Below are positions 3 to 35,851 of a stretch of DNA of 64,000 nt, in pieces (position 1 is the stretch's first letter; each line of letters opens with the position of its first letter). The stretch lies in the NCBI GenBank assembly GCA_018831265.1, contig JAHJCO010000041.1, forward strand, positions 33,700 through 97,699, read 5' to 3'. The translations under genes were made by a program, and so were the position numbers. The DNA is from Actinomycetota bacterium. GTDB taxonomy: Bacteria > Actinomycetota > Geothermincolia > Fen-727 > Anoxymicrobiaceae. The notes beneath the pieces were generated by a model. It searched no databases and was not told the DNA's origin. It was given only the letters and a program-made list of their open reading frames with translations.

Positions 3-254
3 TCCCAGGCCGGACTGAACGGACTCTTCTTCGAGGATGCGCAGGACAGGTGCACCAAAGCATGGTACTACATCGACATCGACGGGCCTTACACTGTCGA
101 TAACTTGTTGTACGGGTTGTATGACCATTTGAATCATGTGCCGACGTGCGTCTGGTCTGAGACGGGATACGAAGGGGGATACAAGAAATGGCAGGAAGCT
201 ATCCCGGACACACAAGTAATGGACCCGGAAAAGGTACTTCCACGGTATCCATGA
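3..254 (+). CDS. 3' end of an upstream gene (5' truncated by the window edge), hypothetical protein
   Basis: Frame 3 is open from the window edge to TGA at 252-254 (...WYYIDIDGPYTVDNLLYGLYDHL...KVLPRYP*). The stop overlaps the next start as ATGA. No recognisable family. Confidence 0.35.
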   Translation, partial: SQAGLNGLFFEDAQDRCTKAWYYIDIDGPYTVDNLLYGLYDHLNHVPTCVWSETGYEGGYKKWQEAIPDTQVMDPEKVLPRYP

Positions 255-3019
255 GAAGACGCCAGTCGTCCTTTGCGGTGTTTGTCGTAGCACTAATACT
301 ACTGACCCCCGTTGCTGCAGTTGCCGGCGGAGGTCCGACTTTCCCGCTTGGGCAGGAGGGCGTGGAGGTGTCACTCCCTCGATTCCATGAGGGGGGCGTA
401 CGAGAACTCGAGAGCGACGGCGGTTTCTACGAGGCCTACGCCAGGGTAGGCGGAGAGTTCACCGAGTGGGAGAAGTACGACGTCTGCCTCCAGAAGGTCG
501 ACCCCGATGGCCGCATCCATGATGGCTGGCCCGCCGACTCCCTCCCGATCTGCACGCTGCCGGGATGGCAATCCCCGTACAAAGCCATATTGACGAACGA
601 CGGAGGCGTGATCGTGCTCTGGGGGGACGACCGCCCGGCATCACAAGGTGGGCCCGGCTGTTACTGCCAGCGGGTGGATTCAGACGGCGGAGTCCATCAA
701 GGTTGGCCGCAAAACGGATTCAAATACCATGGCGCCGAAACTTGGAGATCCGAGTGGCCAATCTATTTCACGGACGAGCAGAACGGCTTCTACGAATTCT
801 GTCTCGACTCGAGGGACTTTCCGCAGACGACCGATGCGGACGACCAGAAGTACGACATCTACGGGTATCGGTGCACCGGGGAACCAGCCACGGCCCCGGG
901 CTGGCAGTACGGCGGGAAGCGTATCCTTCCCAACCTCGCCTCCAGGCACGATCTCAAGGTTGTGCCCGACGGTAAGGGCAACGCGCTGCTCACCTGGATA
1001 GAGGATGACGATGTAGGCCAGGCATATTACGTCAAGGCTCTCAAGATAGGTCCTGACGGCAACGCCTGTCCCGGCTGGGACCCCGACGGGGTCATGCTGA
1101 TGAACGGGGATGAGATCTGGGATAGCGGAAACGACGTGTGGCTCGGTGGATGCGTTATGGTGAACGACGGCTTCGGTGGAGCGGTGGCGGTCTGGCTAGA
1201 CGTGCTCAGGGGTGGAACGTACCCCCACGGTGACTACTTCGCCCAGAGGGTGGACGCGAACGGAAACGTCCTCTGGCAGAAGAACGGCAGGCTGGTCTAC
1301 GACACGGAGTCGATTCTCGGCGACCCACACTCCGCCTCCTGCCCGGACATGCTCGGAGGAGCGTTCGTCCTGTTCGAGGCCCCGGAGGGAGACCCCTGGC
1401 AGGTGGTACACCTGTCTGCCGACGGCACGCCCAACGTGTTCAGCCTGGGGAGCTACCCCGCCGATACGAGTGAAAACGACATCTGGATCGAGGAGGACCG
1501 CTCGGGGGGCGTCTTCAGCCGGTTCACCGACGAAGACGGTGTCGTGTACGGCAAGAGCGACGTAACCGATATCAAGCGCTTCACCAGCCAGGGTACCCCG
1601 TATCCGGGATGGGAAACTCCCGTCATCGTAGAGCACGATGTCGACTACCTGGGCGCCTACATGCCCGGGGAGTGCGTGGTCACCTGGAAGATCGGCGCTT
1701 TCAATTGGGAGTCCATAGGCTACACACGCATTTGCGACCCCCCCAACTTCTCCACCTACATACTGCTGGCGAACCCCAACGACCAGGCGGCCGACGTCGA
1801 CCTCACCTTCATGCTGCCGGGAGGGATGACAAAGGACCACAGCGTAAGCGTCCCGGCAGAGGGAAGGGAGACCGTGTTCTTGAACGAGCTTCTCCCCGCC
1901 GTGGACGTCTCCACCACGGTGAGCGTGGAGGCGACCTTGCCCATAATAGCCGAGCGCTCCATGTACTTCGACTATCTCGGCTCCTATGAGGGTGGGCACG
2001 ACTGCGCGGGGATGACCTCTCCCTCGGACACCTGGTACTTCGCCGAGGGATACACGGCCGGGTCGTTCGACACCTACCTGCTGCTTCAGAACCCCCAAGG
2101 TACAGCAGCGAACGTAACTGTCACCTACATGCTCCCGGGTGCACAGACCATCACCGGCACGTACCAAGTGGCACCACATGCCCGCTACACGGTGAAGGTG
2201 GACGATATTCCTGGACTGGAATCAACCGAGCTATCCATGAAGGTGGACTCAGATCTTCTGATAACCGCGGAGAGGGCCATGTACTTCGACTACTACGGCA
2301 GGATAGGGGGACACGGACAGGCCGGGGTCCCGGCACCTTCAGCCACCTGGCACCTGGCTGAAGGCTACACCGCCCAGTCCTTCGATACCTACATACTGGT
2401 GCAGAACCCGGGAGATGCTCAAGCTACCGTCACCTACTCTTACCTGAAGGAGAACGGAGAGCCCGTAGAGAGGCAGGAGACGATAGCCCCCCACTCGCGC
2501 TTCACGGTGAAGGTGGACGAGGTTACCGGAATGGAGGCCGCCTCCTTCTCCACCACGCTCACCTCCAATGTCCCTGTGATAGCCGAGAGGGCCATGTACT
2601 TCGACTACTACGGTAAGCTCGGGGGACACGACTCGGTGGGGGCCACCTCACCTTCGGCCACCTGGTACCTTGCAGAGGGATACACCGCCGAGGGCTTCGA
2701 CACATTCGTACTGATGGAGAACCCGGGAACGGAGAGCGCCACCGTGAAGGCCACCTATATGAAGCCCTCCGGCGATCCCATCGAGAAGACCTACGTGCTC
2801 GAGCCCAAATCGCGCTTCACCCAGAAGGTGGACGACATACCTGGATTGGAGGCCACGGAGGTCTCCACCAGGCTGGAAACCACAGGCGGCAGCGAGATCG
2901 TGGCCGAGCGGGCGGTCTACTTCGCCTACAAGGGACTCTGGGCGGGGGGACACGACGCCATCGGGGTCACCGCCCCGTCTGCCTCCTGGTACTTCGCCGA
3001 AGGGTACACGGGGTACTGA
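251..3019 (+). CDS. secreted repeat protein: unknown ~480-aa N-domain (recurring D..G...GWP motifs) + 4 tandem ~110-aa 'WYxAEG...QNP...ERAMY' modules
   Basis: ORF 188..3019. Start moved to ATG 251 because MRRRQSSFAVFVVALILLTPVAAVA is a clean signal peptide and ATGA couples it to the upstream stop. The ~110-aa periodicity is visible in the translation; the protein ends on a terminal WYFAEGYTGY strand. Confidence 0.8.
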   Translation: MRRRQSSFAVFVVALILLTPVAAVAGGGPTFPLGQEGVEVSLPRFHEGGVRELESDGGFYEAYARVGGEFTEWEKYDVCLQKVDPDGRIHDGWPADSLPICTLPGWQSPYKAILTNDGGVIVLWGDDRPASQGGPGCYCQRVDSDGGVHQGWPQNGFKYHGAETWRSEWPIYFTDEQNGFYEFCLDSRDFPQTTDADDQKYDIYGYRCTGEPATAPGWQYGGKRILPNLASRHDLKVVPDGKGNALLTWIEDDDVGQAYYVKALKIGPDGNACPGWDPDGVMLMNGDEIWDSGNDVWLGGCVMVNDGFGGAVAVWLDVLRGGTYPHGDYFAQRVDANGNVLWQKNGRLVYDTESILGDPHSASCPDMLGGAFVLFEAPEGDPWQVVHLSADGTPNVFSLGSYPADTSENDIWIEEDRSGGVFSRFTDEDGVVYGKSDVTDIKRFTSQGTPYPGWETPVIVEHDVDYLGAYMPGECVVTWKIGAFNWESIGYTRICDPPNFSTYILLANPNDQAADVDLTFMLPGGMTKDHSVSVPAEGRETVFLNELLPAVDVSTTVSVEATLPIIAERSMYFDYLGSYEGGHDCAGMTSPSDTWYFAEGYTAGSFDTYLLLQNPQGTAANVTVTYMLPGAQTITGTYQVAPHARYTVKVDDIPGLESTELSMKVDSDLLITAERAMYFDYYGRIGGHGQAGVPAPSATWHLAEGYTAQSFDTYILVQNPGDAQATVTYSYLKENGEPVERQETIAPHSRFTVKVDEVTGMEAASFSTTLTSNVPVIAERAMYFDYYGKLGGHDSVGATSPSATWYLAEGYTAEGFDTFVLMENPGTESATVKATYMKPSGDPIEKTYVLEPKSRFTQKVDDIPGLEATEVSTRLETTGGSEIVAERAVYFAYKGLWAGGHDAIGVTAPSASWYFAEGYTGY

Positions 3020-3051
3020 GATCCCGCATTGAACAAGCCAGGTCAAACCAC

Positions 3052-3168: not shown

Positions 3169-3199
3169 AACATCAAAAGGCGTCAGCCCTGGATTTGTT

Positions 3200-3478: not shown

Positions 3479-3481
3479 GGC

Positions 3482-5863: not shown

Positions 5864-7027
5864 TCACCAGGCCTGCGCGAAAACCTCGAGCACCTGCTCC
5901 GGCTCGAGGATGGGGGTGGGGTTGTAGACGATGCTGCCGTCGTACATGCACAGCTCCGCGGCCTGCTCCAGGCCCTCGGATGGGACCCCCGCGTCTCGAA
6001 GTCTCTGCACTATCCCCAGGCTCTCGGTCAGGGCACAGATCGCCTGAATCGCCGCCTCGGCGGCCTCCCGGTCGCTCACCCCGGCCACGTCGATGCCCAT
6101 CGCCAGCGCGACCAGCCTGTACCTGTCGGGGCATGTCTCGATGTTGAATCTCATGGCGTGGGGCAGGACGATGCTGTTGGCCACCCCGTGCGGCACACCG
6201 AAGAGGCCGCCCACCGAGTGCGCCATGGCATGTGGCAGCCCGACCTGGGCGTTGTCGAAGGCGACCCCGGCCATGGTCGCGGCGCACTGCTGCTGACCGC
6301 GCGCCACCAGGTCGCCGCCGTCCGCGACGCACCTGGGCAGGTATTGCGTGATCAGCCTTATCGCGTGCAACGCCATGGCGTCGGCTACCGGTGAGGCCTG
6401 CAGTGTATGAATGGCCTCCACGGCGTGCGTGAAGGCGTCCATCCCGGTCGCCGCGGTAAGCAGCGGCGGAAGGCCCTCCACTATGGTGGGGTCCAGTATG
6501 CCGACGTCGGGGATTATGTGGTTGTCGGAAAAGAGCAGCTTCTGGTGCTTGTCCCAGTCCTTGACCACCGCGGTCATCGTGGCCTCACTGCCTGTCCCGG
6601 CGGTGGTGGGCACCACGACGTGCGGCGTCTGGGGGCGCTTGAGCAGCTGGAACCCGGAGTAGTCCTGGAGCCTCCCCCCCTCCTTGAGCAGGATCGCCAT
6701 GCCCTTGGCGGTGTCTATGGTGCTGCCGCCGCCCACGCTTACAAGGCAGTCGGCGCCCGCTTCCCTGGCGGCAGCCGTCGCCTCGTTTATGACGTGGATG
6801 CCCGAGTCCTGGATGCACGCGTCGAATGTGCCAGCGTGCTTTCCACCGAGCGCCTTCTCGATACGCTGCGAGATACCGGCCTCGACCACCCCCGGGTCGG
6901 TGACCACGAACGCCCGGTTGCATCCCAGCTCGCCGACCTCTATCCCCACGTCGGCAGCGGTCCCCTCGCCGAAAACGATCCTGGTGGGGTTCCTGTAGAC
7001 GAACGCAAGGTCCCTGTCGTACTCCAT
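5864..7027 (-). CDS. iron-containing (group III) alcohol dehydrogenase
   Basis: 387 aa. GGGSTIDTAKG and other Fe-ADH signatures are present. AAAGGAGG sits 6 nt upstream of the ATG. Confidence 0.9.
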   Translation of the reverse strand: MEYDRDLAFVYRNPTRIVFGEGTAADVGIEVGELGCNRAFVVTDPGVVEAGISQRIEKALGGKHAGTFDACIQDSGIHVINEATAAAREAGADCLVSVGGGSTIDTAKGMAILLKEGGRLQDYSGFQLLKRPQTPHVVVPTTAGTGSEATMTAVVKDWDKHQKLLFSDNHIIPDVGILDPTIVEGLPPLLTAATGMDAFTHAVEAIHTLQASPVADAMALHAIRLITQYLPRCVADGGDLVARGQQQCAATMAGVAFDNAQVGLPHAMAHSVGGLFGVPHGVANSIVLPHAMRFNIETCPDRYRLVALAMGIDVAGVSDREAAEAAIQAICALTESLGIVQRLRDAGVPSEGLEQAAELCMYDGSIVYNPTPILEPEQVLEVFAQAW

Positions 7028-7126
7028 CTAAGACCTCCTTTCAAAGACACCCGAGCGGCCCGGGCGCGGGGCGCCGCCCCGTGAACCCGTCCCACCGCCC
7101 CCGCCGGGGCAGCGGCCCCCGCCACC

Positions 7127-7711
7127 CTACACCGCCGGTGTCGCCGCTTTGATGCCCAGGAAGCGCTCGGCCAGCTCGTTGTTGATATGCCTGAACTCCG
7201 GGATCTCGTCGGAGGGGAGGTCGGGGGGAAACTTGCCGCCGACCTCCGCGCTGATGTCCGTGAGCCTCTGGGCGGCCCGGACCGCGCGCACGATGGTGGG
7301 AAGATCGCCCTTGAGCTTGAGCTTGCCCTGCATCATGCCCTTGACCGCGTCCAGCTCCCTCTTGCCGACCTGCGTCCAGCGATCGAGCGACCCGCTGATG
7401 ATGAAGTCGCCGGCCAGGCCCGCGCTCTCGGGGACGATCCTCACCGAGCGGCACTCGCCGTGCCAGAGGTCCATGAAGACGTAGAGGTCGAACTCGAGGC
7501 CGCGCTCCGGGTCGGGCTCGACGTGCAGGACCACGCTGCCCTCCCAGTCCTTCGCGGCCTCCTTGTAGATTTCGTCCATCCGGATCGCCTTCTCGAACAG
7601 CGCGACCCATTCCGGGGTGAAGTAGATGTAGGGCGGCGGGCTCTTGCTCTTCTCCGCGACCACCGCCTGGTACTCCTGCTCCCACTCGTCGGTTCCGTAC
7701 TGAAGTGTCAT
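7127..7711 (-). CDS. SCP2 domain protein
   Basis: ...KGMMQGKLKLKGDLPTIVRA... is an SCP2 signature. Start moved to ATG 7711 (MTLQYGTDEW...) with GAGGAGGG upstream. The ORF-table 5' extension runs into the intergenic region. Confidence 0.6.
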   Translation of the reverse strand: MTLQYGTDEWEQEYQAVVAEKSKSPPPYIYFTPEWVALFEKAIRMDEIYKEAAKDWEGSVVLHVEPDPERGLEFDLYVFMDLWHGECRSVRIVPESAGLAGDFIISGSLDRWTQVGKRELDAVKGMMQGKLKLKGDLPTIVRAVRAAQRLTDISAEVGGKFPPDLPSDEIPEFRHINNELAERFLGIKAATPAV

Positions 7712-10078: not shown

Positions 10079-11287
10079 GTGGCAAGGGCCAGGAACGCGA
10101 TAGGGAACACGCTCGTACTTATCGGCGTCGCGATGCTCATCTTCGCGGTGCTCTGGTGGGGCGTGGCAGTAAAACGAATCGTCGTCTTCCCGAGGGGATA
10201 CGATCTCTCGTTCCGCGCCGAAGCCACCGTAACCCGCCTCGCCGAGAAGCACGGCCTGCTCGAGACAACTCCCGCTCAGACGGGTCGGGTCGCACTCGAC
10301 CGCAACCTCTCGTCGATGGACGGCGACTACCACGGCGACATAGCGGTGGTGGAGGAGGTCATCGAGGCCGACGGGCAGGCTCCCTTCGGGCTGAACCTCG
10401 ACGAGCGCAACATCTACGTGATGGACCGGCGCAGTTGCGAGAACATGAGCAGCACCCTTTCGACATCATCCGGCGAGGTGGTTGACCGGTCAGGCTCCTG
10501 GTACGTGAACTTCCCGTTCGGCGCGGGCAGGGACAGCCGCAACCTGTTCGACAACGACGTCGCCTCCGCGTTCGCGGTCAGCTTCGAGAAGAAGGACGTG
10601 ATCAACGGCGTCGGCGTGTATCTCTTCAAGGGTTCTCACGGCCATCGGCCCATGGTGGATCACGAGGTCAGGGCCATCGGTCTTCCCACGGAGACGACGT
10701 TCGGGGAGATCAAGGGAGAGCTCGCGGCCGCCGGCATACCTATCGACACTCTGGTGCGGTCCGCCTCCAGCAACCTGACCTCGGAGGAGCGGCAGACCTT
10801 CGCGCAGTTCCCCGACTCGCGGCCCATCGCGCTCGAGTACAGCATCAAGCTGGAGTGGGCAGGGGCCGTAGAGCCGGTGACGGGGACGATCGTGAAGATC
10901 GGGCGCTGCCGGAGATCCGTGTACGTGAACACGGAGGTAAGGGCGTTCCTGCCGCTCTTCGAGATACTGGCGAGGCACGCAGAGGACCCCCAGGTCCTGC
11001 AGTACCTGAGCCAGGTCGAACAGCAGAAGCTGCTGGAGCCCAAGGAGCTGTACCGCATCGATTACGGATGGACGGACGCTCAGGCCGCCCAGGCGACCGA
11101 GTACGCGGGTAGCCGTATCGGCCCGATGCGTTTCGTGCAGGACTACATGGTAACCATGTTCCTGCTGCTCGGTGCGGGGTTCTTCCTCGGCGGCTTCATT
11201 GTCCGCAGGAAGGAGCACATGAGGACCGCGCACGACGCGGCGGGCCCGGACGAAGGGAAAGGCGCTGAGGAAGAAAAAGGGCCCTGA
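10079..11287 (+). CDS. membrane-anchored hypothetical protein (N- and C-terminal TM helices), possibly DUF3068-like MmpL accessory protein
   Basis: 402 aa with TM helices near both ends and a large middle domain. Lies directly upstream of an MMPL transporter, as DUF3068 proteins do in Actinobacteria. Assignment is from topology and context only. Confidence 0.45.
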   Translation: MARARNAIGNTLVLIGVAMLIFAVLWWGVAVKRIVVFPRGYDLSFRAEATVTRLAEKHGLLETTPAQTGRVALDRNLSSMDGDYHGDIAVVEEVIEADGQAPFGLNLDERNIYVMDRRSCENMSSTLSTSSGEVVDRSGSWYVNFPFGAGRDSRNLFDNDVASAFAVSFEKKDVINGVGVYLFKGSHGHRPMVDHEVRAIGLPTETTFGEIKGELAAAGIPIDTLVRSASSNLTSEERQTFAQFPDSRPIALEYSIKLEWAGAVEPVTGTIVKIGRCRRSVYVNTEVRAFLPLFEILARHAEDPQVLQYLSQVEQQKLLEPKELYRIDYGWTDAQAAQATEYAGSRIGPMRFVQDYMVTMFLLLGAGFFLGGFIVRRKEHMRTAHDAAGPDEGKGAEEEKGP

Positions 11288-11345
11288 TCTGCGGACAAGG
11301 GCGCTGAGCTGGATAGGGAGCACCGCGACCAGGCGCTGGTACCTG

Positions 11346-18557: not shown

Positions 18558-20831
18558 ATGAGGACGAGCAGATTCGTACTGATAGGCGTTACTGTCTGCG
18601 CACTGGCGATGCCCGCGAGCGCGGCGGCGGTCGCCCAGCCCGTGATCCAGGGGTGGGTCGAACAGGTCTCCGGGGTTACGCACAGGCTGCAGTCCGTCGG
18701 CGCGGTCAGCCAGGATGTGGCATGGGCGGTGGGCACCAACGATACCATCCTCAAGACGACGGACGGCTCGACCTGGCAGGCGCAGGCCTCCGGGACCACC
18801 GGTGAGGACTTCGCCTGCGTCGACGCCCTGGACGCCAGCAACGCCTGGATCGTGGGCGATGGGGGCACGGTGCTGCGCACCACCAACGGGACCGCCTGGA
18901 ACCCGCCGCCGGCGCCGGTGCCGACGGGCACCAAGAACCTGAGGGGCGTGAAGATGCTCAGCGCCACCACGGTCTGGATAGTGGGCTACGACGGGACCAT
19001 CCTGAAGACGACCGACGGCGGTACCGTCTGGGACAACCAGAGTGTAGCGGGAAAGAGCCTGTGGAGCATAGATGCCACCGACTCGAACCACGCCTTCGCG
19101 GTCGGAGACGAGGGCAGGGTCGTCAGGACCATCAACGGCGGGGGCACCTGGTACGAGCGCGACCCGGGGACGACGAGTAAGCTGCGGGGAGTGGTGATGA
19201 CCGACTCCAACACCGCCTGGGCGGTCGGGTACAACGGGACCATCGTGAAGACCACCAACAGCGGGACCAACTGGACGACGCAGCCCAGCCCGACCGACGA
19301 CATCCTCTTCGACATAAGCGCGGCGGGCTCGAACACGGCATGGACGGTCGGGTACAACGATTTCAGCAGCCTGGGCGGGTTCATACTCCAGACGGGGAAC
19401 GGGGGAAACGGCTGGTTCAAGCAGCCCGCCCCCCCGGTCGGCGACCTGTACGGCGTGTCCGCCGTGGACGCCAACACCGCCTGGGCGGTGGGGGCCGGCG
19501 GAACGATCCTAAAGACCGAGAACGGGGGCGAGTCACTGACCACCTGGTACCTGGCGGAGGGATCCTCCGACTGGGGCTTCGAGACCTTCATCGCCATCGA
19601 GAACCCCAACACGGTGCCGGTCACCGCGGAGGTGACCTACCAGACCAGGGACGGCGAGCAGACACGCCCGGACCTGCCGCTCGCCGCGCAGTCCCAGGTG
19701 GTCATCGATCCCAGGGGCGACGTGGGTGCGACCGACTTTTCGACCAGGGTCGAGTGTAAGGAAGGCTATACCATCGCGGTGGACAGGCGCATGATGTGGA
19801 CCGGCCCTGGCGCCGGCTGCCAGGAGTCCCACAGCTCGGTGGGGGTGACCGCCCCCGACACGACCTGGTTCCTCCCCGAGGGTTCCTCCAAGTGGGGTTT
19901 CGAGTGCTGGCTCCTCGTTCAGAACCCCAACGGCGCCCAGGCGAACTGCGAGGTCACCTACATGATAGAAGGCGAAGGGCCTCAGGTGATCGCGCATACT
20001 GTACCGGCGAACTCGAGGGCTTCTTTCGACATGTCACAGGACATCGGCGCGAAGGACGCCTCGATCCGCGTGGACTCGGACCTGCCGGTGATCCCCGAGA
20101 GGGCGATGTACCGGTACAACCGGCGCGAGGGCCACGAATCCATCGGGACCATCAACCCTTCGATGGACTACTACCTGGCCGAGGGGTGCACTTCCTACGG
20201 TTTCACGTCCTTCATCCTGGTGCAGAACCCCCAGGCGACGGCCACCGATGTCACTGTGACGTACATGACCGGCGCGGGGCCCGTGGACATGCCCGTCTTC
20301 AGGATGGAGCCCAACACCAGGCGGACCATAAACGTGAACGCCGAGGCGGTGCTCCCCGATCCCAACTTCTCGACCCGGGTCCACGGCACGCAGCCCATAA
20401 TCGCCGAGCGGGCCATGTACTGGGACCGCGGGTACGGCGAGGCCTGTCACGACTCAATAGGCATGCCCGCCCCGGACTACGTGTTCTACCTGCCGGACGG
20501 GGATTCCAGCCCACAGTTCGAGACCTGGACGCTCATCCAGAACCCGAACCCCGTGGATGCCCAGGTGATCGTCTCGTACTTCAGGCCCAACGGGCAGGGA
20601 AACGTGACGAAGATGGAGACGATCCCCGCCAACAGCCGGAGGACCTACGAGATGGGAGCGCACTCGGGTGCCGCCGGCCGCGCGGCGGTGATGGTCAGCA
20701 GCGACCCCGAAGCGGGCCGCCCGGTGATGGTCGAGCGCTCCATGTACTGGCCCAGGGAGAGCGTGAACCCCTCGCTGTGCAGGGGCGCCGGCACGGACAC
20801 GATCGGCGGTTCTTCGAGCTTCCAACCGTAG
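18558..20831 (+). CDS. secreted protein: 7-bladed BNR/Ycf48-like beta-propeller + 4 tandem 'WYLAEG...QNP...ERAMY' modules
   Basis: Signal peptide MRTSRFVLIGVTVCALAMPASAAAVA. Seven WAVG..GTILKTTDGG.TW blades. The same ~110-aa module as genes 251-3019, 21031-23712 and 33512-35851. Confidence 0.8.
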   Translation: MRTSRFVLIGVTVCALAMPASAAAVAQPVIQGWVEQVSGVTHRLQSVGAVSQDVAWAVGTNDTILKTTDGSTWQAQASGTTGEDFACVDALDASNAWIVGDGGTVLRTTNGTAWNPPPAPVPTGTKNLRGVKMLSATTVWIVGYDGTILKTTDGGTVWDNQSVAGKSLWSIDATDSNHAFAVGDEGRVVRTINGGGTWYERDPGTTSKLRGVVMTDSNTAWAVGYNGTIVKTTNSGTNWTTQPSPTDDILFDISAAGSNTAWTVGYNDFSSLGGFILQTGNGGNGWFKQPAPPVGDLYGVSAVDANTAWAVGAGGTILKTENGGESLTTWYLAEGSSDWGFETFIAIENPNTVPVTAEVTYQTRDGEQTRPDLPLAAQSQVVIDPRGDVGATDFSTRVECKEGYTIAVDRRMMWTGPGAGCQESHSSVGVTAPDTTWFLPEGSSKWGFECWLLVQNPNGAQANCEVTYMIEGEGPQVIAHTVPANSRASFDMSQDIGAKDASIRVDSDLPVIPERAMYRYNRREGHESIGTINPSMDYYLAEGCTSYGFTSFILVQNPQATATDVTVTYMTGAGPVDMPVFRMEPNTRRTINVNAEAVLPDPNFSTRVHGTQPIIAERAMYWDRGYGEACHDSIGMPAPDYVFYLPDGDSSPQFETWTLIQNPNPVDAQVIVSYFRPNGQGNVTKMETIPANSRRTYEMGAHSGAAGRAAVMVSSDPEAGRPVMVERSMYWPRESVNPSLCRGAGTDTIGGSSSFQP

Positions 20832-21030: not shown

Positions 21031-23712
21031 ATGAAGGCTGGAACAGTGGCGGTGGCGCGGATAGCGCTCCTCTTCGTCGTCCTGGCGGTGATGGGGACGG
21101 TGCCCGCGCGCGCGGCAGGCAGTACGGGCGGGGATGCGCAGACCTACTACGTGTCCCCGTCCGGCCTCGACTCCAATCCGGGGACGCTCGACAAGCCCTT
21201 CAAGACACCTGGTTACGCCTCAAAGCAGATCCAGGCGGGCGATACCCTCATCATCCAGGGCGGCCGGTACGTGCTCTCCACCTTCTACGACGACATGATC
21301 ACCCCCCCGACCGGGACCGCTACCGCGCCGATAATCATCAAGGGGGAGGAAGGAAACCGCCCCGTGCTCGCCGGGCGCGACAACCTCTTCTCGGCGGTGG
21401 ATATCGGGGGGACCAGCTACATAACCATCGAGAACCTGGAGATAACCTCCGACAACGGGGCGCTGTTCCGGGGAGGTATCGCCGGGTCGAGCGGGCCGGT
21501 CGATCACCTGACGCTGAAAGATCTCTATATCCACCATATAGACGAGGGAGCGATGGACTTCGCGGACCTCTCGGCCGCGATCATCCAGGGCTGCGTGATG
21601 TCGTACTGCGGGTTCGGCTGCCTGGGCGGGCCCGTGGGCCAGCAGGGGGGATGGCGCGACGTCACCGTGCGCGGCTGCACTCTCTCCTACTCGGGGCACT
21701 ACTACCAGGGCGGCCCGGGGCCGAGCCCCTACGACCGGCCGGACGGGTTCGGGGTCGAGCCCTCCGAGGGGCCCATTGAGATCGTGGACACGGTCGCCGA
21801 GCACAACAGGGGCGACGGGCTGGACTCCAAGTGCAGGAACACCCATATCCACGAGTGCGTGGTCGCGAACAACTCCTGCGACGGGGTGAAGCTCTGGGGC
21901 GACGGCAGCCGGGTCGAGAACACGCTCGTCTACGGCACGGGCGACGGAGTGGGCGGCGCCTCTCCCTGGGCGGGGCTGGTCATCGGCACCGAGCAGGAGG
22001 GCGCGGACTTCGAGATAGTGAACTGCGCCATTGCCGACAACCCCGAGCGGGAGGCGTACCCGATGTACGTCGAGTACGGGGGGGCGGCCAACATCAGCGT
22101 CCTGTTCCGCAACAACATCGTCGCCGACGGCTACGGGGCGCCGTACTTCGCGCCCGAGGCCGACCTCACGCTCGACCACTGCATCCTCTACAGCCCGGAC
22201 CACCCCGACAACTCGCTGGAGGCGAACGGGAAGACCTACAGCGCCGACGAGCTGGAGGCCGGGGCGGTCGGGGAGGGAGTCCTGTGCGACGACCCGAAGT
22301 TCCTGCAGCCTGCCTGGGGCTCGGCCGGTGATTACCACCTGGAGGCGGGAAGCCCGGCAATCGACTCCGGGTCGTCGGACGGCGCTCCGGCCATCGACCT
22401 GGACGGTGCGGCCCGACCGTTCGGCGCGGGGTACGACATCGGCCCCTACGAGTACGGGGCTTTGAGGCCGGTCACGGGAGAGAGGACCTGGGGGACCGGC
22501 GCTCCGGGGGTCACGCAGCCCGGGGTCACCTGGTACCTGGCCGAGGGCTGCACCGCCGGAGGGTTCGAGACCTGGGTCCTGGTGCAGAATCCGAATAGCA
22601 CGCCCGCAACCGTGGACATCACCTACATGACCGGGGAGGGGGAGAAGCCCGGGCCCCGCGTCACCCTCCCGCCGGACTCGAGGGCGACGGTGAACGCGGC
22701 CGACACGGTGGGACAGGCCTGGGAGGTCTCGGCGAAGGCGTCCTCCAACGTACCGGTGGTTGTGGAGCGCGCCATGTACTGGGGCGGCCGGACCGGGGCC
22801 CACGGCTCGACGGGGGTGAGCGGGCCGGCAACGGACTGGTACCTGGCCGAGGGCTGTACCGCCGGCGGCTTCGAGACCTGGGTGCTCCTGCAGAACCCCG
22901 GAAGCGTCGAAGCCAACGCACAGCTCACTTTCATGACGGATACCGGACAGGTAACGGGCCCTTTAGTGGTATTGCCCCCGGGCACGCGCCGGACGGTGAA
23001 CGTCGCGGAGACGGTGGGCGAGGCCTGGAACGTTTCCACCGGGGTTGACTCCGATGAGCCGGTCGTCGCCGAGCGGGCGATGTACTGGAACGGGCGCGCG
23101 GGCGGCCACGACTCGGTGGGGGTGACGGCGGCCTCGAAGACCTGGTACCTCGCCGAGGGCTCCACCGGGGGCACGTTCGAGACCTGGCTTCTGCTGCAGA
23201 ACCCGGGAGACGTGCAGGCAAACGCGCAGGTGACCTTCATGACGGACGCCGGGCCGGTCACCGGCCCTTCGGTGGGGTTGCCCCCGGGCACGCGCCGGAC
23301 GGTCAACGTCGCGGAGACGGTGGGGGCGCAGTGGAGCGTATCCACCGAGGTGTCGTCAGACCAGCAGGTCGTCGCGGAGCGGGCGGTCTACTGGGACGGG
23401 CGGCGTGAGGGCCACGACTCGGCCGGGGTAACCTCGCGAGGCAAGACCTGGTATGTAGCCGAGGGCTGCACGGGCCAGGGTTTTCAGACCTGGATACTGG
23501 TACAGAACCCGGGCACGCAGAACGCCACGGTGAGCCTGGAGTACATGACGGGTAGCCGACAGGTGACCGGTCCCACGCTCATCCTCGGCCCCCGGACTCG
23601 CCGCACGGTGAACGTCGCCGACACCTGCCCTGGCGAATGGAGCGTCTCCACGAAGGTCACCTCCAGCCACGACATCACCGTCGAACGCGCCGTGTACGGC
23701 GTATCCCCTTGA
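21031..23712 (+). CDS. secreted protein: right-handed parallel beta-helix (pectate-lyase/DUF1565-like) head + 4 tandem 'WYLAEG...QNP...ERAMY' modules
   Basis: Signal peptide; YYVSPSGLDSNPGTLDKPFKT... and NNSCDGVKL... coils indicate a beta-helix fold, followed by four clear module repeats. Confidence 0.8.
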   Translation: MKAGTVAVARIALLFVVLAVMGTVPARAAGSTGGDAQTYYVSPSGLDSNPGTLDKPFKTPGYASKQIQAGDTLIIQGGRYVLSTFYDDMITPPTGTATAPIIIKGEEGNRPVLAGRDNLFSAVDIGGTSYITIENLEITSDNGALFRGGIAGSSGPVDHLTLKDLYIHHIDEGAMDFADLSAAIIQGCVMSYCGFGCLGGPVGQQGGWRDVTVRGCTLSYSGHYYQGGPGPSPYDRPDGFGVEPSEGPIEIVDTVAEHNRGDGLDSKCRNTHIHECVVANNSCDGVKLWGDGSRVENTLVYGTGDGVGGASPWAGLVIGTEQEGADFEIVNCAIADNPEREAYPMYVEYGGAANISVLFRNNIVADGYGAPYFAPEADLTLDHCILYSPDHPDNSLEANGKTYSADELEAGAVGEGVLCDDPKFLQPAWGSAGDYHLEAGSPAIDSGSSDGAPAIDLDGAARPFGAGYDIGPYEYGALRPVTGERTWGTGAPGVTQPGVTWYLAEGCTAGGFETWVLVQNPNSTPATVDITYMTGEGEKPGPRVTLPPDSRATVNAADTVGQAWEVSAKASSNVPVVVERAMYWGGRTGAHGSTGVSGPATDWYLAEGCTAGGFETWVLLQNPGSVEANAQLTFMTDTGQVTGPLVVLPPGTRRTVNVAETVGEAWNVSTGVDSDEPVVAERAMYWNGRAGGHDSVGVTAASKTWYLAEGSTGGTFETWLLLQNPGDVQANAQVTFMTDAGPVTGPSVGLPPGTRRTVNVAETVGAQWSVSTEVSSDQQVVAERAVYWDGRREGHDSAGVTSRGKTWYVAEGCTGQGFQTWILVQNPGTQNATVSLEYMTGSRQVTGPTLILGPRTRRTVNVADTCPGEWSVSTKVTSSHDITVERAVYGVSP

Positions 23713-25519: not shown

Positions 25520-26523
25520 AAGATATCCCGGGCGGCTTCCAGGATGCGGGCGACGCTGGGGAGGGCCTCGTCCTCCAGGCGGCGGGCGTAGGGGATGGTG
25601 CCCTCGGTGCAGATCCGGGCGAAGCGGGCGTCCGTGCCTGACTCGGCGATTACGGCGGCGACCTCGCCAGAGAGGCCGAAAGCGCGGTAGTCCTCGTCAA
25701 CGACGACTACGCGGCGGCAGCGGCGCGCCGCCTCTGAGATCACGTCGGTGTCGAGCGGCCGGACGGAGCGCAGGTCTAGGACCGTGGACCGCACCCCTTC
25801 GGAGCCCAGGGCCGCGGCGGCCTCCAGGCAGCGGTGGACGCTCAGGCCGAGCGATATGAAGGCGATGTCGGAGCCGTTCCTGAGTGTCGCGGCCACGCCG
25901 AGTGGGACGGGCTGGACAGGCAGCGGGACGTCTCCATTGGCGCCGGCCGCCGGGACGTCGAACTCCACTCCTTCACGGTTTCCTATGCCCATGTAGTCGA
26001 GCCAGTAGTCGGCCAGCATCTTGTGCTCCAGGTAGACCACCGGACCATCTTCCTGAACTGCGGCGAGCATCAATCCTGCTGCATCCGCCGGGTTGGACGG
26101 CACGACCACGGAAAGCCCCGGGACACCCGCGAGCATCCTTCAGAGGCTCTGCTCGTGCTGTCCTCCGTCGCCGTACCCCGCGCCGCACGAGGAGCGCACC
26201 ACCATGGGGACCTTGAACCCGCCACCCGAGAACGTCTCTATCTTGGCCGCCTGGTTCAGCAGCGCGTCGAAGCACACCCCGATGAAGTCCACCAGCATTA
26301 TCTCGACGACCGGCCGCAGGCCCATCATCGCCGCGCCGACAGCGGTGCCCAGGAAGGCGGACTCGCTGATGGGGGTGTTTCGCACCCGCTTGCCGCCGAA
26401 CCGGACCAGCAGGTCGTTTCGCAGCAGTTCGACGTCCTCGCCGAATACGATGACCGTCTCGTCGGCCTCCATCGCGGCCGCGAGCCCGGCTGAGATCGCC
26501 TCGGCGAATGTCATTTCAGGCAT
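25516..26523 (-). pseudogene. 2-oxoacid (pyruvate/acetoin) dehydrogenase E1 component beta subunit, interrupted by one in-frame TGA (at 26140-26142)
   Basis: ORFs 26140..26523 (transketolase pyrimidine-binding part, ...GGQHEQSL*) and 25516..26136 (RMLAGVPGL..., transketolase C-terminal domain) share a frame. Together they give a normal ~334-aa E1 beta; the TGA falls where Glu is usual (QSL-E-A..PGLKVV). Confidence 0.7.
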
Positions 26524-30730: not shown

Positions 30731-30838
30731 TTCAACATCAATAGCACCACCGATGTGGCCGCTGATTTGACCTTGACTAATAATAACGTTAATATGTCAT
30801 TATTATTGCATAATATTGACATGCTAAGGATAGTGATA

Positions 30839-32131
30839 ATGGACCTAATCACGTTCAATCCCTGGTGGAGGGACGGCAGGGTGTCTGCGGCTCTCGTTGG
30901 CAGGAAACGGCGGTTGCTGGCCGGGCTCTCGGAATATATGGGCCTGCGGCAGATGCTCATCCTCTACGGCCTGCGGCGGGTCGGTAAGACGACCACCATG
31001 TTCCAGTTGATCGATGGCCTCCTGGAGCGCGAAGAGGCAGATCCGTACCACATCCTCTACTTCTCTTTCGACGAAGAGAAGGCCGATATCAAGGAGATTC
31101 TGGCGGCTTACGAGAGGCAGATCATCAGAGAAGACCTGCCCCGCGACAGGAAGACCTACCTGTTCCTCGACGAGGTGCAGAAGCTCGACGACTGGCCGGA
31201 CAAGGTCAAAGTCATCTATGACATGTACCCCAGCGTGAAGCTCTGCCTCTCGGGTTCGGCCGCCATAGCCATCACCAAAGGGGTGAAGGAAAGCCTGGCG
31301 GGAAGGTTCTTCGAGACCATGATCGAACCCCTCGACTTCGACGAATACCTGGAGTTCTCAGGGGATGACATCGACCGCGAGCAGGAGAGGGTCTTTGAGC
31401 TGCGAATACGCCGCAGGTTCGAGGAGTTCATGGCGAACGGGGGCTTCATCGAGGCGCTGGAGCTTTCCGATTCCCACAGAAACAGGTACTTCAAGGAGGG
31501 CCTTCTAGAAAGAGTCATCTACCGCGACCTGCCGGACAGCTTCCATATCAACGCGCCCGACCTTCTGTACAGGTGCATGCGCGTCTGCGCCGAGAAGCCG
31601 GGTATGCTCCTCGACTACAGTAGCCTGGGGCGGGACCTCGGTCACGACCAGCGGACCATTGCAGCATACTTCTCTCACCTCGAATACGCTCTGCTGGCGA
31701 ACAAGCTCTACAATTACTCGCCCAATCTCCTCACGAGCGAGAAGAAGATGAAGAAGGTCTATCTATCGAGTACGGCGTTCAGCGTAGCGCTCTCCCCGCC
31801 GGTCGGCCGCCCGGAGCTTATCGAGCAGTTCTTCGCGAACGTCCTCAAGGCCCGGTTCTTCTCGAGGACCCCCCAGAGGGACGAGGTGGACCTGGTCCTG
31901 TCAGGCGATGGGGAGGTGGTCCCGATCGAGGTCAAGATCAGGTCCGAAGTGAAGAAGCGGGACGCCACGCCCCTGTTCAAGTTCCTGCACAGGTACAAAG
32001 CCGCCAGGGGGTACATGATCTCGGACGGTACCGAGACCGTGTTCTCGGATGGCGAGAAGGAGGTAGAGGTCATTCCCTACTGGATGTACTGGACGTTGAT
32101 GGACAGACTTGGTGGTATTCTCGACAGGTGA
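30839..32131 (+). CDS. AAA+ ATPase (AAA_14-like) fused to a DUF4143/PD-(D/E)xK-like C-terminal domain
   Basis: Walker A GLRRVGKTT and Walker B LFLDEVQ. C-terminal EVDLVL...VVPIEVK looks like a D...ExK nuclease motif. Start is ATG 30839 with AAGGA upstream. The gene and its upstream region are markedly AT-rich relative to the window. Confidence 0.8.
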   Translation: MDLITFNPWWRDGRVSAALVGRKRRLLAGLSEYMGLRQMLILYGLRRVGKTTTMFQLIDGLLEREEADPYHILYFSFDEEKADIKEILAAYERQIIREDLPRDRKTYLFLDEVQKLDDWPDKVKVIYDMYPSVKLCLSGSAAIAITKGVKESLAGRFFETMIEPLDFDEYLEFSGDDIDREQERVFELRIRRRFEEFMANGGFIEALELSDSHRNRYFKEGLLERVIYRDLPDSFHINAPDLLYRCMRVCAEKPGMLLDYSSLGRDLGHDQRTIAAYFSHLEYALLANKLYNYSPNLLTSEKKMKKVYLSSTAFSVALSPPVGRPELIEQFFANVLKARFFSRTPQRDEVDLVLSGDGEVVPIEVKIRSEVKKRDATPLFKFLHRYKAARGYMISDGTETVFSDGEKEVEVIPYWMYWTLMDRLGGILDR

Positions 32132-33061: not shown

Positions 33062-33256
33062 TTGAAGGTGCGTGATATCATCAGGATACTTGAAAAGGAC
33101 GGGTGGTTTCTGGTGACGACCAGGGGAAGTCATCGACAGTACAAGCATCAGATGAAGCCGGGCAGGGTTACGATAGCCGGTCACTTGAACGACGATCTGT
33201 CTCCGGGCACATTGGACAGCATATACAAGCAGGCGGGCTTGAAGGAGAGCCGATAG
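33062..33256 (+). CDS. hicA: HicA-family toxin (mRNA interferase)
   Basis: 64 aa; ...ILEKDGWFLVTTRGSHRQYKH...GRVTIAGH...LSPGTLDSIYKQAGL fits HicA/YcfA. Confidence 0.8.
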   Translation: MKVRDIIRILEKDGWFLVTTRGSHRQYKHQMKPGRVTIAGHLNDDLSPGTLDSIYKQAGLKESR

Positions 33257-33257
33257 G

Positions 33258-33485
33258 ATGTTCCGCTTTCTAGTCGTGATCGAGAAGGCAAACGGGAACT
33301 ACTCCGCATATTCTCCGGACCTGCCCGGATGCGTAGCATCCGGGGCGACCGTGAAAGAGGCGGAACGAAATATGCACGAGGCGATCGAGCTCCACGTGAA
33401 GGGGCTGATCGAAGACGGCCAGCCGGTTCCCGTCTCCGAATCCTTCGCGGAGTATTTCGCCATACCGGAGGATATCGCGCAGTAG
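33258..33485 (+). CDS. hicB: HicB-family antitoxin (UPF0150)
   Basis: 75 aa; ...VIEKANGNYSAYSPDLPGCVASGATVKEAERNMHEAIELHV is the HicB N-domain. Separated by 1 nt from hicA. Confidence 0.75.
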   Translation: MFRFLVVIEKANGNYSAYSPDLPGCVASGATVKEAERNMHEAIELHVKGLIEDGQPVPVSESFAEYFAIPEDIAQ

Positions 33486-33511
33486 TGTCCCATTGACCAC
33501 CCGGAGGTCTC

Positions 33512-35851
33512 ATGCTCCGCAAAACGATAATTGCGCTGGGGGTGGCCGTTCTCTCGGTCGCCTTCGCGCCCATGGCACTCGCCTCGAGCGGCTGGACCGG
33601 GGGGCACGACGTGGTCGGGTGCACTCAGGCCGCCACCACCTGGTACTTCGCGGAGGGGACGACCCGCACCGGGTTCAACGAGTGGGTCTGCCTGTACAAC
33701 CCCGCGGACAACGATACCAGCGCGACCTTCACCTATATGCTCGAGGACGGCAGCACCGAAGTGAAGACGTACGAGCTGCGCGCCGCGAGCCGCACCACCG
33801 TGGATGTGAACCTCGAGCTGGGGCCCGGGCACGACGTTTCGATAAAGGTCGATTCGGCAGCCCCGGTGGTCGCCGAGCGTCCCATGTATTTCCGCTATAA
33901 CGGCATGTGGACCGGTGGTCACGACGTGGTGGGGACCAACGGACCCCTGCCGGAGTGGTTCTTCGCCGAGGGCACTTGCCGTCCGGGCTTCGATCCCTAC
34001 ATCTGCATCCAGAACCCGGGCTCTGGAGACGCCGCCGTGCTCGTCACCTACATGCTGGGCGACGGCACCACGCGCGAGGAGAACCTGACCGTCGGTGCGC
34101 ACAGCCGTTCGACGGTCGTCCCCAGGCAACTGCTGGGCGAGGGCGACGACGCCGCGCACGACTTCTCCGCGCACGTGGAGACGACCAACGGCGCGCTTAT
34201 CGTGGCCGAGCGCCCGATGTACTTCAACTACAAGGGCGGCTGGAGCGGCGGGCACGACGTGGTGGGCGCGACCGCCCCATCGACCGCGTTCCACTTCGCC
34301 GAGGGGACGTGCCGCCCCGGCTTCGATCCTTACCTCTGCATCCAGAACCCGAGCGACAAGACCTCCCGCCTCCGGATCACCTACATGCTGGGTAGCGGCG
34401 CTACCCAGGCCCAGTCCCTGGCCATCAGCCCCCACTCGCGGTCAACGGTCGTCGTCAAGCAGGTGCTGGGAGAGTTCGACGACCCGGCCCACGACTTCTC
34501 TGCCAGCGTGGAGACGACCGACGGGAGCAAGGTCATCGCCGAGCGGCCGATGTACTTCAATTACAAGGGGGCCTGGACGGGCGGGCACGACGTGGTCGGG
34601 GCTACCTCTCCCGCCCAGTCGTTCTCCTTCGCCGAGGGCACCTGCCGTCCAGGCTTCGACGCCTACCTGTGCATCCAGAACCCCGGGCCCGAGACCTCCG
34701 CCATCAATATCACGTACGTGCTGGGGGACGGGACCAGCCGGCAGCAGGCGCTCGACGTCGGCCCCAACAGCCGGGCGACCGTCTTCGTCAAGGACGTGCT
34801 GGGGGAGGGCAACGACCCGGCGCACGACTTCTCCGCCACCGTCGCCACGACCAACGGCACGGAGATAATCGCCGAGCGGCCCATCTACTACGACTACTAC
34901 AGCACCGCGAAATGGTCGATGGCCGTGCTCGGGGACGTGAACCTCGGTGGCGACGTGTCGCCGACTCTGGCCGCCAACGGCTTCGGGTACGTGTGGACCG
35001 GGGTCGGCCCGTATATCTCGGAGGCGACCCTGGGATTCGCGAACCTGGAGTGCACCATGTCATACCAGGGCTCGCCGGTCCCCGGGAAGACGTTCACCTT
35101 CGAGGGCGACCCAAACGCTCTGCCCGCGATGCGTGACGCAGGGGTTGACGTCGTTTCGCAGGCCAACAACCACGCCCGGGACTACGGGGCGGTGGCACTG
35201 CTGGACTGCCTGGGTTACCTGGACGGGTTCGGCATCGCTCACTGCGGCGCGGGGGCCGACTACGAGAGTGCACACGTCCCCGCGTACCTCGACGCCGAAG
35301 GACTGCGCGTGGCATTCCTGGCGTACGACGACATCGGTACCGCGGGATGGTACGCCGACGCCGGCTACCCGGGGGTCTGCGACGCGACCGATACGGGCAG
35401 GCTCATCGCCGACGTCCAGGCGGCGAGCCTCAACGCCGACTTCGTGGTGGTCTCCTTCCACTGGGGCAACGAGAAGGAGTACACCCCGACGGCGCGCCAG
35501 GCGAACCTCGCGCGGCTGTCAATTGACTGCGGCGCGGACATCGTGCTTGGCCATCACCCGCACGTGGTGCAGGGGATGGAGATATACAACGGCGGACTGA
35601 TCTGCTATTCGCTGGGCAACTTTGTGTTCAACCCTGGCAGCGACGCCGGGCACTACACGATACTGACCCGGATATCACTCGACTCGCGTGGGTTCCTGCA
35701 GGCCGAGTCGCACCCGGTCCACATAGACAGCTGCCGACCGACCATCATGGGGGGCGAGGCCGGGGCCGCCTGGATTAACCAGGTGGCGGCCATAGTGCAG
35801 GGGCTGGGGACACCCGCCCGGGTGCAGGACAACGTGATGTACGTACCGTGA
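33512..35851 (+). CDS. secreted protein: 4 tandem 'WYFAEG...QNP...ERPMY' modules + C-terminal CapA/PGA_cap-like metallophosphoesterase domain
   Basis: Signal peptide, then four ~110-aa modules, then LGNFVFNPGSD...HWGNEKEYTPT...VLGHHPHVVQG, typical of CapA-family domains. Confidence 0.85.
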   Translation: MLRKTIIALGVAVLSVAFAPMALASSGWTGGHDVVGCTQAATTWYFAEGTTRTGFNEWVCLYNPADNDTSATFTYMLEDGSTEVKTYELRAASRTTVDVNLELGPGHDVSIKVDSAAPVVAERPMYFRYNGMWTGGHDVVGTNGPLPEWFFAEGTCRPGFDPYICIQNPGSGDAAVLVTYMLGDGTTREENLTVGAHSRSTVVPRQLLGEGDDAAHDFSAHVETTNGALIVAERPMYFNYKGGWSGGHDVVGATAPSTAFHFAEGTCRPGFDPYLCIQNPSDKTSRLRITYMLGSGATQAQSLAISPHSRSTVVVKQVLGEFDDPAHDFSASVETTDGSKVIAERPMYFNYKGAWTGGHDVVGATSPAQSFSFAEGTCRPGFDAYLCIQNPGPETSAINITYVLGDGTSRQQALDVGPNSRATVFVKDVLGEGNDPAHDFSATVATTNGTEIIAERPIYYDYYSTAKWSMAVLGDVNLGGDVSPTLAANGFGYVWTGVGPYISEATLGFANLECTMSYQGSPVPGKTFTFEGDPNALPAMRDAGVDVVSQANNHARDYGAVALLDCLGYLDGFGIAHCGAGADYESAHVPAYLDAEGLRVAFLAYDDIGTAGWYADAGYPGVCDATDTGRLIADVQAASLNADFVVVSFHWGNEKEYTPTARQANLARLSIDCGADIVLGHHPHVVQGMEIYNGGLICYSLGNFVFNPGSDAGHYTILTRISLDSRGFLQAESHPVHIDSCRPTIMGGEAGAAWINQVAAIVQGLGTPARVQDNVMYVP

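Follow-up and report, generated by a model that had tools for sequence, protein, structure and literature searches.

The window studied in this paper is a stretch of 64,000 nucleotides (64 kb) from an uncultured, anaerobic Actinomycetota bacterium of the Anoxymicrobiaceae (contig JAHJCO010000041.1). It contains four genes, numbered here 1 to 4, and each encodes a secreted protein in which a different domain is joined to four tandem copies of one module. A first-pass annotation of the sequence had described this module as unrecognised. That description does not stand: the module is almost certainly the ASRAH domain, defined by De Souza, Iyer & Aravind in 2009 (Biol Direct 4:25; PMC2739507), and each array is an ASRAH tetrad. 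The arrays are circularly permuted with respect to one another, in a way that points to a closed ring, and their fusion partners and architecture make a role as cell wall anchor a reading with about even chances.

Four arrays of four units

A profile hidden Markov model (HMM) of the module, built from 16 hand-cut units, was run on the six-frame translation of the window. It finds exactly four full units in each of four open reading frames (ORFs), with E-values per unit from 1e-30 to 5e-43, and no further copy anywhere in the 64 kb. Four tandem copies in each of four genes had been claimed from the first reading, and the claim is confirmed both by this model and by the periodicity of the DNA. 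The motif positions recur four times in each protein at the spacing of the unit, 100 to 111 amino acids. The corresponding period at the DNA level is 315 nucleotides in gene 1, 303 to 321 in gene 2, 306 in gene 3 and 333 in gene 4, the repeats being 60-75% identical over most of their length. The periodicity also survives a proper alignment: the 16 units can be aligned end to end, with invariant residues F, N, P, S and R, and the motifs that had been singled out earlier are the conserved columns of this alignment, WYxAEG, GF[DE]T..L.QNP, TYM, ERAMY and GGHD..G.

All four genes lie on the forward (+) strand. Gene 1 (188..3019) encodes a signal peptide, an 8-bladed beta-propeller and a tetrad at 1721..2974, with units at 1721-2020, 2021-2335, 2336-2650 and 2651-2974 (unit HMM E 6e-32 to 2e-41). 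Gene 2 (18558..20831; 757 amino acids) encodes a signal peptide, a propeller of seven blades and a tetrad at 19533..20789, with units at 19533-19853, 19854-20156, 20157-20471 and 20472-20789 (E 2e-30 to 2e-38). Gene 3 (21031..23712; 893 amino acids) encodes a signal peptide, a right-handed beta-helix, a choice-of-anchor Q domain and a tetrad with units at 22519-22824, 22825-23130, 23131-23436 and 23437-23709. In gene 4 (33512..35851; 779 amino acids) the order is reversed: the tetrad, with units at 33629-33943, 33944-34276, 34277-34609 and 34610-34909 (E 2e-32 to 8e-41), follows the signal peptide, and a metallophosphoesterase-fold domain of CapA type forms the C-terminus.

The product of gene 1 has 943 amino acids if it is read from the ATG at 188, and 922 if it is read from the ATG at 251. 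The first of these codons has a strong Shine-Dalgarno sequence (GAAGGGGGA, 8 nucleotides upstream), better than that of the second, and gene 1 may start there instead of at 251, which would add 21 residues ahead of the signal peptide. Read from 251, the protein begins MRRRQSSFAVF..., and its triple arginine is loosely twin-arginine-like. An exact-sequence look-up in a public protein collection did not find the gene 1 protein with either start.

The presence of signal peptides, also claimed at the outset, agrees with what inspection of the N-termini reveals: in all four proteins, counting gene 1 from M22, a positive charge is followed by a hydrophobic stretch and an AxA-type site. By the same inspection, none of the four proteins has another transmembrane segment, an LPXTG motif, or a lipobox in a signal-peptide context.

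Identity of the module

The Pfam family PF18986 (DUF5719) matches the products of genes 1 to 4 with 58.0, 39.2, 68.3 and 60.4 bits, all above its gathering cut-off of 26.2 (E 1e-15, 6e-10, 8e-19 and 2e-16). The matches cover chiefly the repeat part of the family, about positions 34-256 of a model of 319 positions. DUF5719 is the present Pfam name of an actinomycete lipoprotein with an ASRAH dyad, described in PMC2739507; the same paper describes secreted ASRAH tetrads fused to N-acetylmuramoyl-L-alanine amidase in Chloroflexi. Comparison with sequences of known structure leads to the same family. Among all PDB sequences, a profile of the whole tetrad matches ASRT, the Anabaena sensory rhodopsin transducer, at E 0.002-0.003 and TM1070 of Thermotoga at E 0.015, and the profile of a single unit matches TM1070 at E 0.003, with the segment WFFPDGY...LCIMN of TM1070 aligned to WYLAEG...iliqN. 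The Pfam ASRT model is not listed at E < 0.1 for the four window proteins themselves; it does match homologous tetrads with 38-41 bits (cut-off 25), and also 14 of 59 representatives, at a best E of 1e-20.

An AlphaFold2 model of the gene 3 tetrad (397 amino acids, 51 sequences) has a mean predicted local distance difference test (pLDDT) score of 96.1 and a predicted template modelling (pTM) score of 0.92. No linkers separate the units, and each of them has eight strands. This is the topology of TM1070, an eight-stranded beta-sandwich. A Foldseek search reaches probability 1.0 for TM1070 and ASRT only; the nearest structural neighbours outside ASRAH are carbohydrate-binding modules (CBMs) and accessory domains of glycoside hydrolases. 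The hallmarks of the ASRAH domain are a conserved tryptophan, preceded by a polar residue, where strand 1 starts, and an asparagine, nearly invariant, where strand 2 ends (PMC2739507). Most of the 16 window units have T/D/E-W at the first position; the asparagine is found in 16 of 16, and is invariant also across sets of 51 and 59 homologues. All the ASRAH features that could be checked are thus present in the module.

The idea that the module is previously unrecognised and defines a new paralogous family has the public annotation on its side, which gives it no name: NCBI calls the product of gene 2 'hypothetical protein', that of gene 3 'right-handed parallel beta-helix repeat-containing protein' and that of gene 4 'CapA family protein'. 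Yet it can hardly be maintained, and we regard it as refuted, with PF18986 above its cut-off in all four proteins and the domain, its tetrads and a predicted role in print since 2009 (PMC2739507). What the window proteins add are further members, and new partner architectures, for a family that is catalogued yet experimentally untouched. A match to a well-characterised family of known function had been named as what would overturn the first description; what was found is a named family with a solved fold, ASRT and TM1070 having crystal structures, while the function of its secreted forms is a prediction. The literature on it is short: a full-text search for 'DUF5719' returns no paper, 'ASRAH' as a domain name occurs only in PMC2739507, and no later paper on the secreted forms was found.

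Two other candidates were set aside. The unit profile matches a streptococcal surface protein of the R4/Rib type with E 0.0013; domain by domain, however, the E-values are 3.4 and 16, and the matched stretch is short and compositional. The S-layer protein Slr4 of Pseudoalteromonas, a gammaproteobacterial family, has one weak Pfam match in one homologue; the match is absent from the four window proteins and from a census of 59 proteins, and we attribute it to chance or composition.

Circular permutation of the tetrads

To describe the ends of the arrays, we write a unit as the strands s1 (WYxAEG) to s7 (ERAMY), followed by s8 (GGHDxxG). The four window arrays are opened at three different points of this cycle, so that all three observed phases are present in the window. 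Gene 2 runs from s1 to s8, its final s8 being degenerate (GAGTDTIGG), with a score behind unit 4 that exceeds background in a position-specific scoring matrix (PSSM) for s8. In genes 3 and 4 the array starts with s8 and stops with s7. In gene 4, the leading s8 is WTGGHDVVG, right behind the signal peptide, and unit 4 has no s8 (leading strand and tetrad, 33590..34909); the PSSM gives +18.3 ahead of unit 1 and -14.7 behind unit 4. In gene 3, the leading s8 is degenerate (RTWGTGAPG, about 22471-22518), and the protein ends 4 residues past the last ERAVY (leading strand and tetrad, 22471..23709). Gene 1 runs from s2 to s1: the first strand of its unit 1 is merely degenerate (NWESIGYT), and an extra C-terminal s1, SWYFAEGYTGY, follows unit 4 at 2975..3016. 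This trailing strand probably completes unit 1 of a closed ring.

The same alternation is seen when the ends of about 290 non-redundant arrays are examined. By a strict motif, s8 is found at both ends of no array, ahead of unit 1 in 33 and behind unit 4 in 120 (Fisher 5e-9). The PSSM, trained on internal junctions, finds it at both ends in 4 arrays, before in 72, after in 160 and at neither end in 52 (p 1e-28). The 4 'both' cases look spurious, and in most of the listed 'neither' cases an s8-like motif lies too near the C-terminus for the full scoring window. Arrays with a leading s8 end 2-4 residues past the last ERxMY. Similarly, an extra s1 (WYFAEGYTG-stop) stands behind unit 4 only where unit 1 has no canonical s1: both strands are found in 0 arrays, the canonical s1 alone in 266, the trailing one alone in 11 and neither in 19 (Fisher 2e-12).

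Because the terminal s8 and s1 strands are mutually exclusive, each tetrad would hold exactly four copies of every strand, in a chain opened at three or more places. Such exclusion is most simply explained by a ring that closes on itself: the unit at one end of the array lacks a strand, and receives it from the opposite end. The high pTM of the model, together with units that abut without linkers, indicates one rigid body instead of beads on a string. On the combined basis of this score and of the permutation statistics, we consider a closed pseudo-tetramer, sealed by a velcro-type strand, to be likely. Velcro closure of this kind is known from beta-propellers. Two points weigh against this reading: the arrays counted are related, and the Fisher p-values overstate their independence; moreover, ring closure and equivalence with the TM1070 tetramer rest on pTM and statistics, not on model coordinates, the modelled gene 3 fragment having excluded the leading s8.

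Partner domains

The first-pass annotation described four different partners, and the domain matches agree with it, apart from what it called a GWP-repeat domain in gene 1. This region (326..1744, + strand) is an 8-bladed beta-propeller, made of a repeat of ~58 amino acids, DG.GGAI..W.D.R....DIYAQR.D..G...W...G...C.....Q..P. The repeat is unnamed and has no Pfam model, and it occurs in many phyla, including in a metagenome-assembled genome (MAG) of Promethearchaeota; it is a candidate for the definition of a new repeat family. Its homologues in Krumholzibacteriota, Cloacimonetes and other phyla usually carry the sorting tails of the type IX secretion system (T9SS), namely Por_Secre_tail, CHU_C or FlgD_ig, and these C-terminal domains sit exactly at the position that the tetrad occupies in gene 1.

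The propeller of gene 2 (about amino acids 26-325) is of the PSII_BNR/Ycf48-like type, with seven blade motifs (PSII_BNR E 5e-17). In gene 3, the pectate-lyase-like helix is matched by Beta_helix at E 5e-10 and by a Pel9A-like model at E 5e-7, and a Choice_anch_Q domain (NCBIfam, E 6e-13, amino acids 429-475) directly precedes the tetrad. Choice-of-anchor domains are named for accepting alternative C-terminal anchors. The C-terminal domain of gene 4 (about 34919-35632) is matched by PGA_cap at E 3e-70.

Homologous tetrads have further partners. Some are peptidoglycan-active: Amidase_3, Peptidase_M23, a Peptidase_M99/AstE-like carboxypeptidase and class A beta-lactamase-like domains. Others are proteases, among them S8, or domains of the CAP, GDSL and TIG types, and propellers are numerous. 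Secreted proteins that consist of a tetrad only exist as well.

Copy number and expansion of the family

An exhaustive search of 1.84 billion representatives yields 8,678 clusters (at 50% identity) with E <= 1e-3, and 3,703 with E <= 1e-30; a word-indexed search finds 2,090 tetrad relatives among 8,000 scored candidates. The named sources of these relatives are Candidatus Geothermincolia, Candidatus Anoxymicrobiaceae, Candidatus Solincola and unclassified MAGs of Actinomycetota, and NCBI already labels some of them 'DUF5719 family protein'. Up to 8 of the best 78 genomic loci come from one related MAG, and 20 of the 78 contain 2-3 tetrad genes within 13 kb. These figures bear out the lineage-specific expansion that had been suggested from the window alone.

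The number of units is remarkably stable in this large family: four in 115 of the 120 best homologues, the others being fragments, and four in 96 of 111 ORFs of related loci. In the library-wide search, too, the copy number is mostly 4; single-tetrad proteins reach 2,888 amino acids. Longer arrays are of double length: 7-9 stretches are reported, mostly 8, or two tetrads, in proteins of 700-2,049 amino acids. Copy number thus appears to be quantised in fours. About 20 library entries report '5' stretches, for which the extra terminal strands described above are a possible cause.

Within the window, units of the same position in different proteins have a mean identity of 35.2%, units of different positions 35.0%, and units of the same protein 46.6%, rising to 53% in gene 4 and 58% in gene 3, where a stretch of 36 nucleotides is 97% identical between units 2 and 3. 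Across 119 tetrads, same-position identity is 45.4% versus 44.1% for different positions, and 66% of nearest neighbours are the same-position unit of another protein. An ancient tetrad whose positions had become differentiated was considered and set aside, there being no positional signal among the window proteins and a weak average one across the 119 tetrads. We conclude that tetrads are copied whole, and that their units tend to stay or become alike. The likeness within proteins suggests homogenisation by gene conversion, or selection for pseudo-symmetry.

Proposed function

We propose that each of the four genes yields a protein exported by a Sec-type route, made of one variable working domain and a constant block of ~400 amino acids with four ASRAH domains. 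The four units would pack into one compact body and reproduce, in a single chain, the homotetramer of ASRT and TM1070; the ring, closed by its terminal strand, would offer up to four equivalent clefts to a glycan of repeating structure in the cell's own wall, which could be peptidoglycan or else a secondary wall polymer. The tetrad would then be a non-covalent and multivalent anchor that holds varied exoproteins on a cell surface of Gram-positive type.

Several observations argue for such an anchor: the signal peptides, the lack of any other anchor in the four proteins, the sets of polar residues conserved in all four units, the published prediction, and the position of the tetrad in what may be called an anchor slot. 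The prediction, made in PMC2739507, is that dyads and tetrads probably mimic the stand-alone tetramer, and that the domain probably binds sugars or peptidoglycan. The slot is defined by the T9SS tails in the homologues of the gene 1 propeller, and by the choice-of-anchor domain ahead of the gene 3 tetrad. As for the residues, the family conserves E, N, R, S, E-R and Y in each of the four units, which argues for four retained sites and not merely for a packing surface. The acidic residue of GF[ED]T is missing in exactly one unit per protein (unit 1 in genes 1 and 4, unit 3 in gene 2, unit 4 in gene 3). With fusion partners and architecture as its basis, we judge the odds that the tetrad anchors these proteins by binding the cell's own wall glycan to be about balanced. 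The first-pass annotation had guessed at envelope anchoring or polymer binding; the guess agrees with the published prediction and with the fusion partners, and the function itself is still a prediction.

The points that tell against a wall anchor should be set beside these. The literature holds no binding experiment on a secreted ASRAH protein, and no operon for the synthesis of a wall polymer adjoins the four genes, whose neighbours are metabolic. The ligand is not transferable from TM1070 by homology, since the histidine and cysteine of the TM1070 pocket (SHEshChhN) are mostly replaced by F-[ED]-T...L. With the alignment anchored on the invariant asparagine, the cleft histidine corresponds to an acidic residue in 12 of the 16 units, an equivalence made uncertain by a gap in the HMMER alignment at this place. 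Cys29, a ligand-contacting residue of TM1070 (PMC2739507), is replaced by Leu, Ile or Val in most units; a cysteine is kept in 4 of the 4 units of gene 4, three residues ahead of the invariant asparagine, as in TM1070. A cross-check in phages, where wall-binding modules might be looked for, was silent: when the tetrad alignment was run against 2.9 million viral contigs, one locus was found, at 5878-7266 of IMG/VR contig IMGVR_UViG_3300014204_000035. The ORF there encodes a tetrad and nothing else, and no endolysin; it lies at the end of the contig, next to genes for an HTH (helix-turn-helix) repressor, a PD-(D/E)XK nuclease and a Gp3-like recombination directionality factor, and possibly belongs to the host flank of a prophage. 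Finally, the pectate-lyase-like helix of gene 3 fits the targeting of an external polysaccharide equally well.

This last point belongs to a different explanation, in which the tetrad is a substrate-targeting CBM that brings an enzyme to a plant, algal or biofilm polysaccharide and not to the cell's own wall. The beta-sandwich fold, with CBMs and glycoside hydrolase accessory domains as its nearest neighbours outside ASRAH, is what one would expect of it; BNR propellers are common in glycan-active proteins, and the published prediction says merely 'sugar-binding'. However, among the partners are many whose target is the wall of the cell itself, or which are no glycan enzymes at all (Amidase_3, M23, M99, beta-lactamase-like, S8, CAP, TIG-only and tetrad-only proteins), and one module on many unrelated cargos per genome, in a slot taken elsewhere by T9SS tails, fits an anchor better. 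We hold external targeting to be unlikely, though worth keeping in mind.

The existence of tetrad-only secreted proteins and of double tetrads raises another question: the module might serve protein-protein assembly, as a lattice, an S-layer-like block or a rigid stalk, with no glycan ligand. The stand-alone ASRT and TM1070 are defined by oligomerisation, and one homologue weakly matches Slr4. But that match is single and weak, to a gammaproteobacterial family, there is no evidence of a lattice, and the polar residues are conserved in all four units; such a scaffold is improbable.

The cysteine kept in the units of gene 4 would fit yet another role, that of a small-molecule sensor that allosterically regulates the attached domain. 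Sensing of small molecules is proposed in PMC2739507 for the stand-alone family, whose member TM1070 has a ligand cleft. The window proteins, in contrast, are extracellular, and the cargos of the family include non-enzymatic propellers and TIG domains; furthermore, the tetrad is found at either protein end and often alone, which speaks against a specific regulatory coupling. We think a sensor very improbable.

Returning to the wall anchor, a bolder version of it can be formulated, which we put forward tentatively, as rather less than an even bet: the ASRAH tetrad could be the general surface anchor of a whole deep-branching class of uncultured anaerobic Actinomycetota (Geothermincolia, Anoxymicrobiaceae and Solincola-like), a velcro ring with four sites for a lineage-specific wall glycopolymer, cut open at three or more strand positions so that cargo can be carried at either end. 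A literature search on 'Geothermincolia' found nothing on the envelope. If this were true, the tetrad would add a fourth to the independent ways of non-covalent wall anchoring represented by SLH, CWB2 and LysM/SH3b, and would be a rare circular permutation in a closed repeat assembly other than a propeller.

More generally, recognising the ASRAH/DUF5719 tetrad places the window proteins, and thousands like them, into one likely class of cell-surface proteins. Should the anchor reading be true, the module would mark the surface-attached secreted proteins of an uncultured subsurface class of Actinomycetota, and could find use as a handle for display or targeting. The permutation statistics also add a testable structural prediction, a ring closed by a terminal strand, to a prediction of 2009 that has not been followed up.

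The rest of the window

The neighbours of the four genes are metabolic and regulatory: AFOR, Fe-ADH, acyl-CoA ligases, an E1 dehydrogenase, an ABC transporter, a CooS-like protein and a TetR regulator, among others. No conserved operon surrounds the four genes, and only the pair formed by genes 2 and 3 is kept together, in a related MAG, with 89-93% identity. Neither tRNA genes nor Rfam matches were found in the window.

The segment 30755-33485, immediately upstream of gene 4, has a GC content of 0.58, versus about 0.65. Encoded in it are an AAA_14/DUF4143 ATPase (30755-32131) and a HicB-like antitoxin (33258-33485), for which no HicA partner is found among the called ORFs; a further ORF runs on the opposite strand. 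The segment may have been acquired as a small island. In the other low-GC patch of the window (0.56), the - strand carries at 58370-59215 the gene of an unusual double-HTH regulator, a protein of 280 amino acids with a MerR-type HTH (amino acids 9-76) and a TetR-type HTH (97-142).

An E1 beta-type gene (Transket_pyr and Transketolase_C; 25516-26523, - strand) is split into two ORFs, 26140-26523 and 25516-26136, with the Transket_pyr profile cut at about position 122 of 131, by a frameshift, a pseudogene or an assembly error. At 10079-13625, the gene of a PorA (PF11271) family member precedes that of an MMPL transporter, a pairing typical of Actinomycetota envelopes; genes for LPG_synthase_TM and a CDP-alcohol phosphatidyltransferase lie nearby, and no link to the tetrad genes is established.

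Comparison with known systems

The stand-alone proteins ASRT (PDB 2II7) and TM1070 (PDB 1NC7) are cytoplasmic and single-domain; they assemble from four chains, bear the cleft signature SHEshChhN, and are linked to sugar-metabolism operons or to a rhodopsin. The window tetrads, on the other hand, place four domains in one exported chain, and have GF[ED]T..L.QNP as the signature of strand 2.

A published parallel is the amidase-tetrad family of PMC2739507, which shares with the window tetrads the domain, the four tandem copies, secretion, and the predicted mimicry of a tetramer with binding of peptidoglycan or sugar. Proteins that join Amidase_3 to a tetrad are indeed found among the close homologues of the window tetrads, although a Pfam scan finds no Amidase_3 in the four window proteins and only some homologues have it. 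The published family is always fused to an amidase, and comes mainly from Chloroflexi (Roseiflexus, Chloroflexus and Herpetosiphon), whereas the tetrads of the window and their relatives belong to Geothermincolia-like Actinomycetota, have dozens of partners and stand at either protein end. The three circularly permuted phases are not mentioned in PMC2739507; together with the evidence for ring closure and the argument of the anchor slot, they go beyond anything that we found in print.

The DUF5719 family resembles the window proteins in its occurrence in Actinomycetota, in secretion and in scores above the cut-off. Its canonical member is a cell-surface lipoprotein: it has a lipobox cysteine and two ASRAH domains, with extensions of its own at the N- and C-terminus, and its gene is linked to those of WhiB, a glycosyltransferase and an inactive zincin (PMC2739507). 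The window proteins have four units instead of two, no lipobox and no match to the family-specific extensions; none of WhiB, the glycosyltransferase and the inactive zincin is found among the Pfam-scanned genes of the window. The window tetrads thus fit the defining architecture of neither published family of secreted ASRAH proteins.

Functionally, the SLH and CWB2 triplets of Firmicutes offer a parallel: three repeats provide non-covalent anchoring to a wall glycopolymer, with pyruvylated secondary cell wall polymer (SCWP) and the polysaccharide PSII as proven ligands. Like the tetrads, they use a small and fixed number of tandem repeats, which form one pseudo-symmetric body and are attached, within one genome, to many unrelated secreted cargos at either terminus. 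The folds, however, are unrelated, there are three repeats versus four, and wall anchoring is proven for the triplets and predicted for the tetrads.

The T9SS belongs to double-membraned bacteria. Its sorting domains (Por_Secre_tail, CHU_C and FlgD_ig) are not homologous to ASRAH: each is a single domain of ~80 amino acids, read by a dedicated secretion system. Nevertheless, in the propeller proteins related to gene 1, they are the architectural equivalent, for surface attachment, of the position that the tetrad holds.

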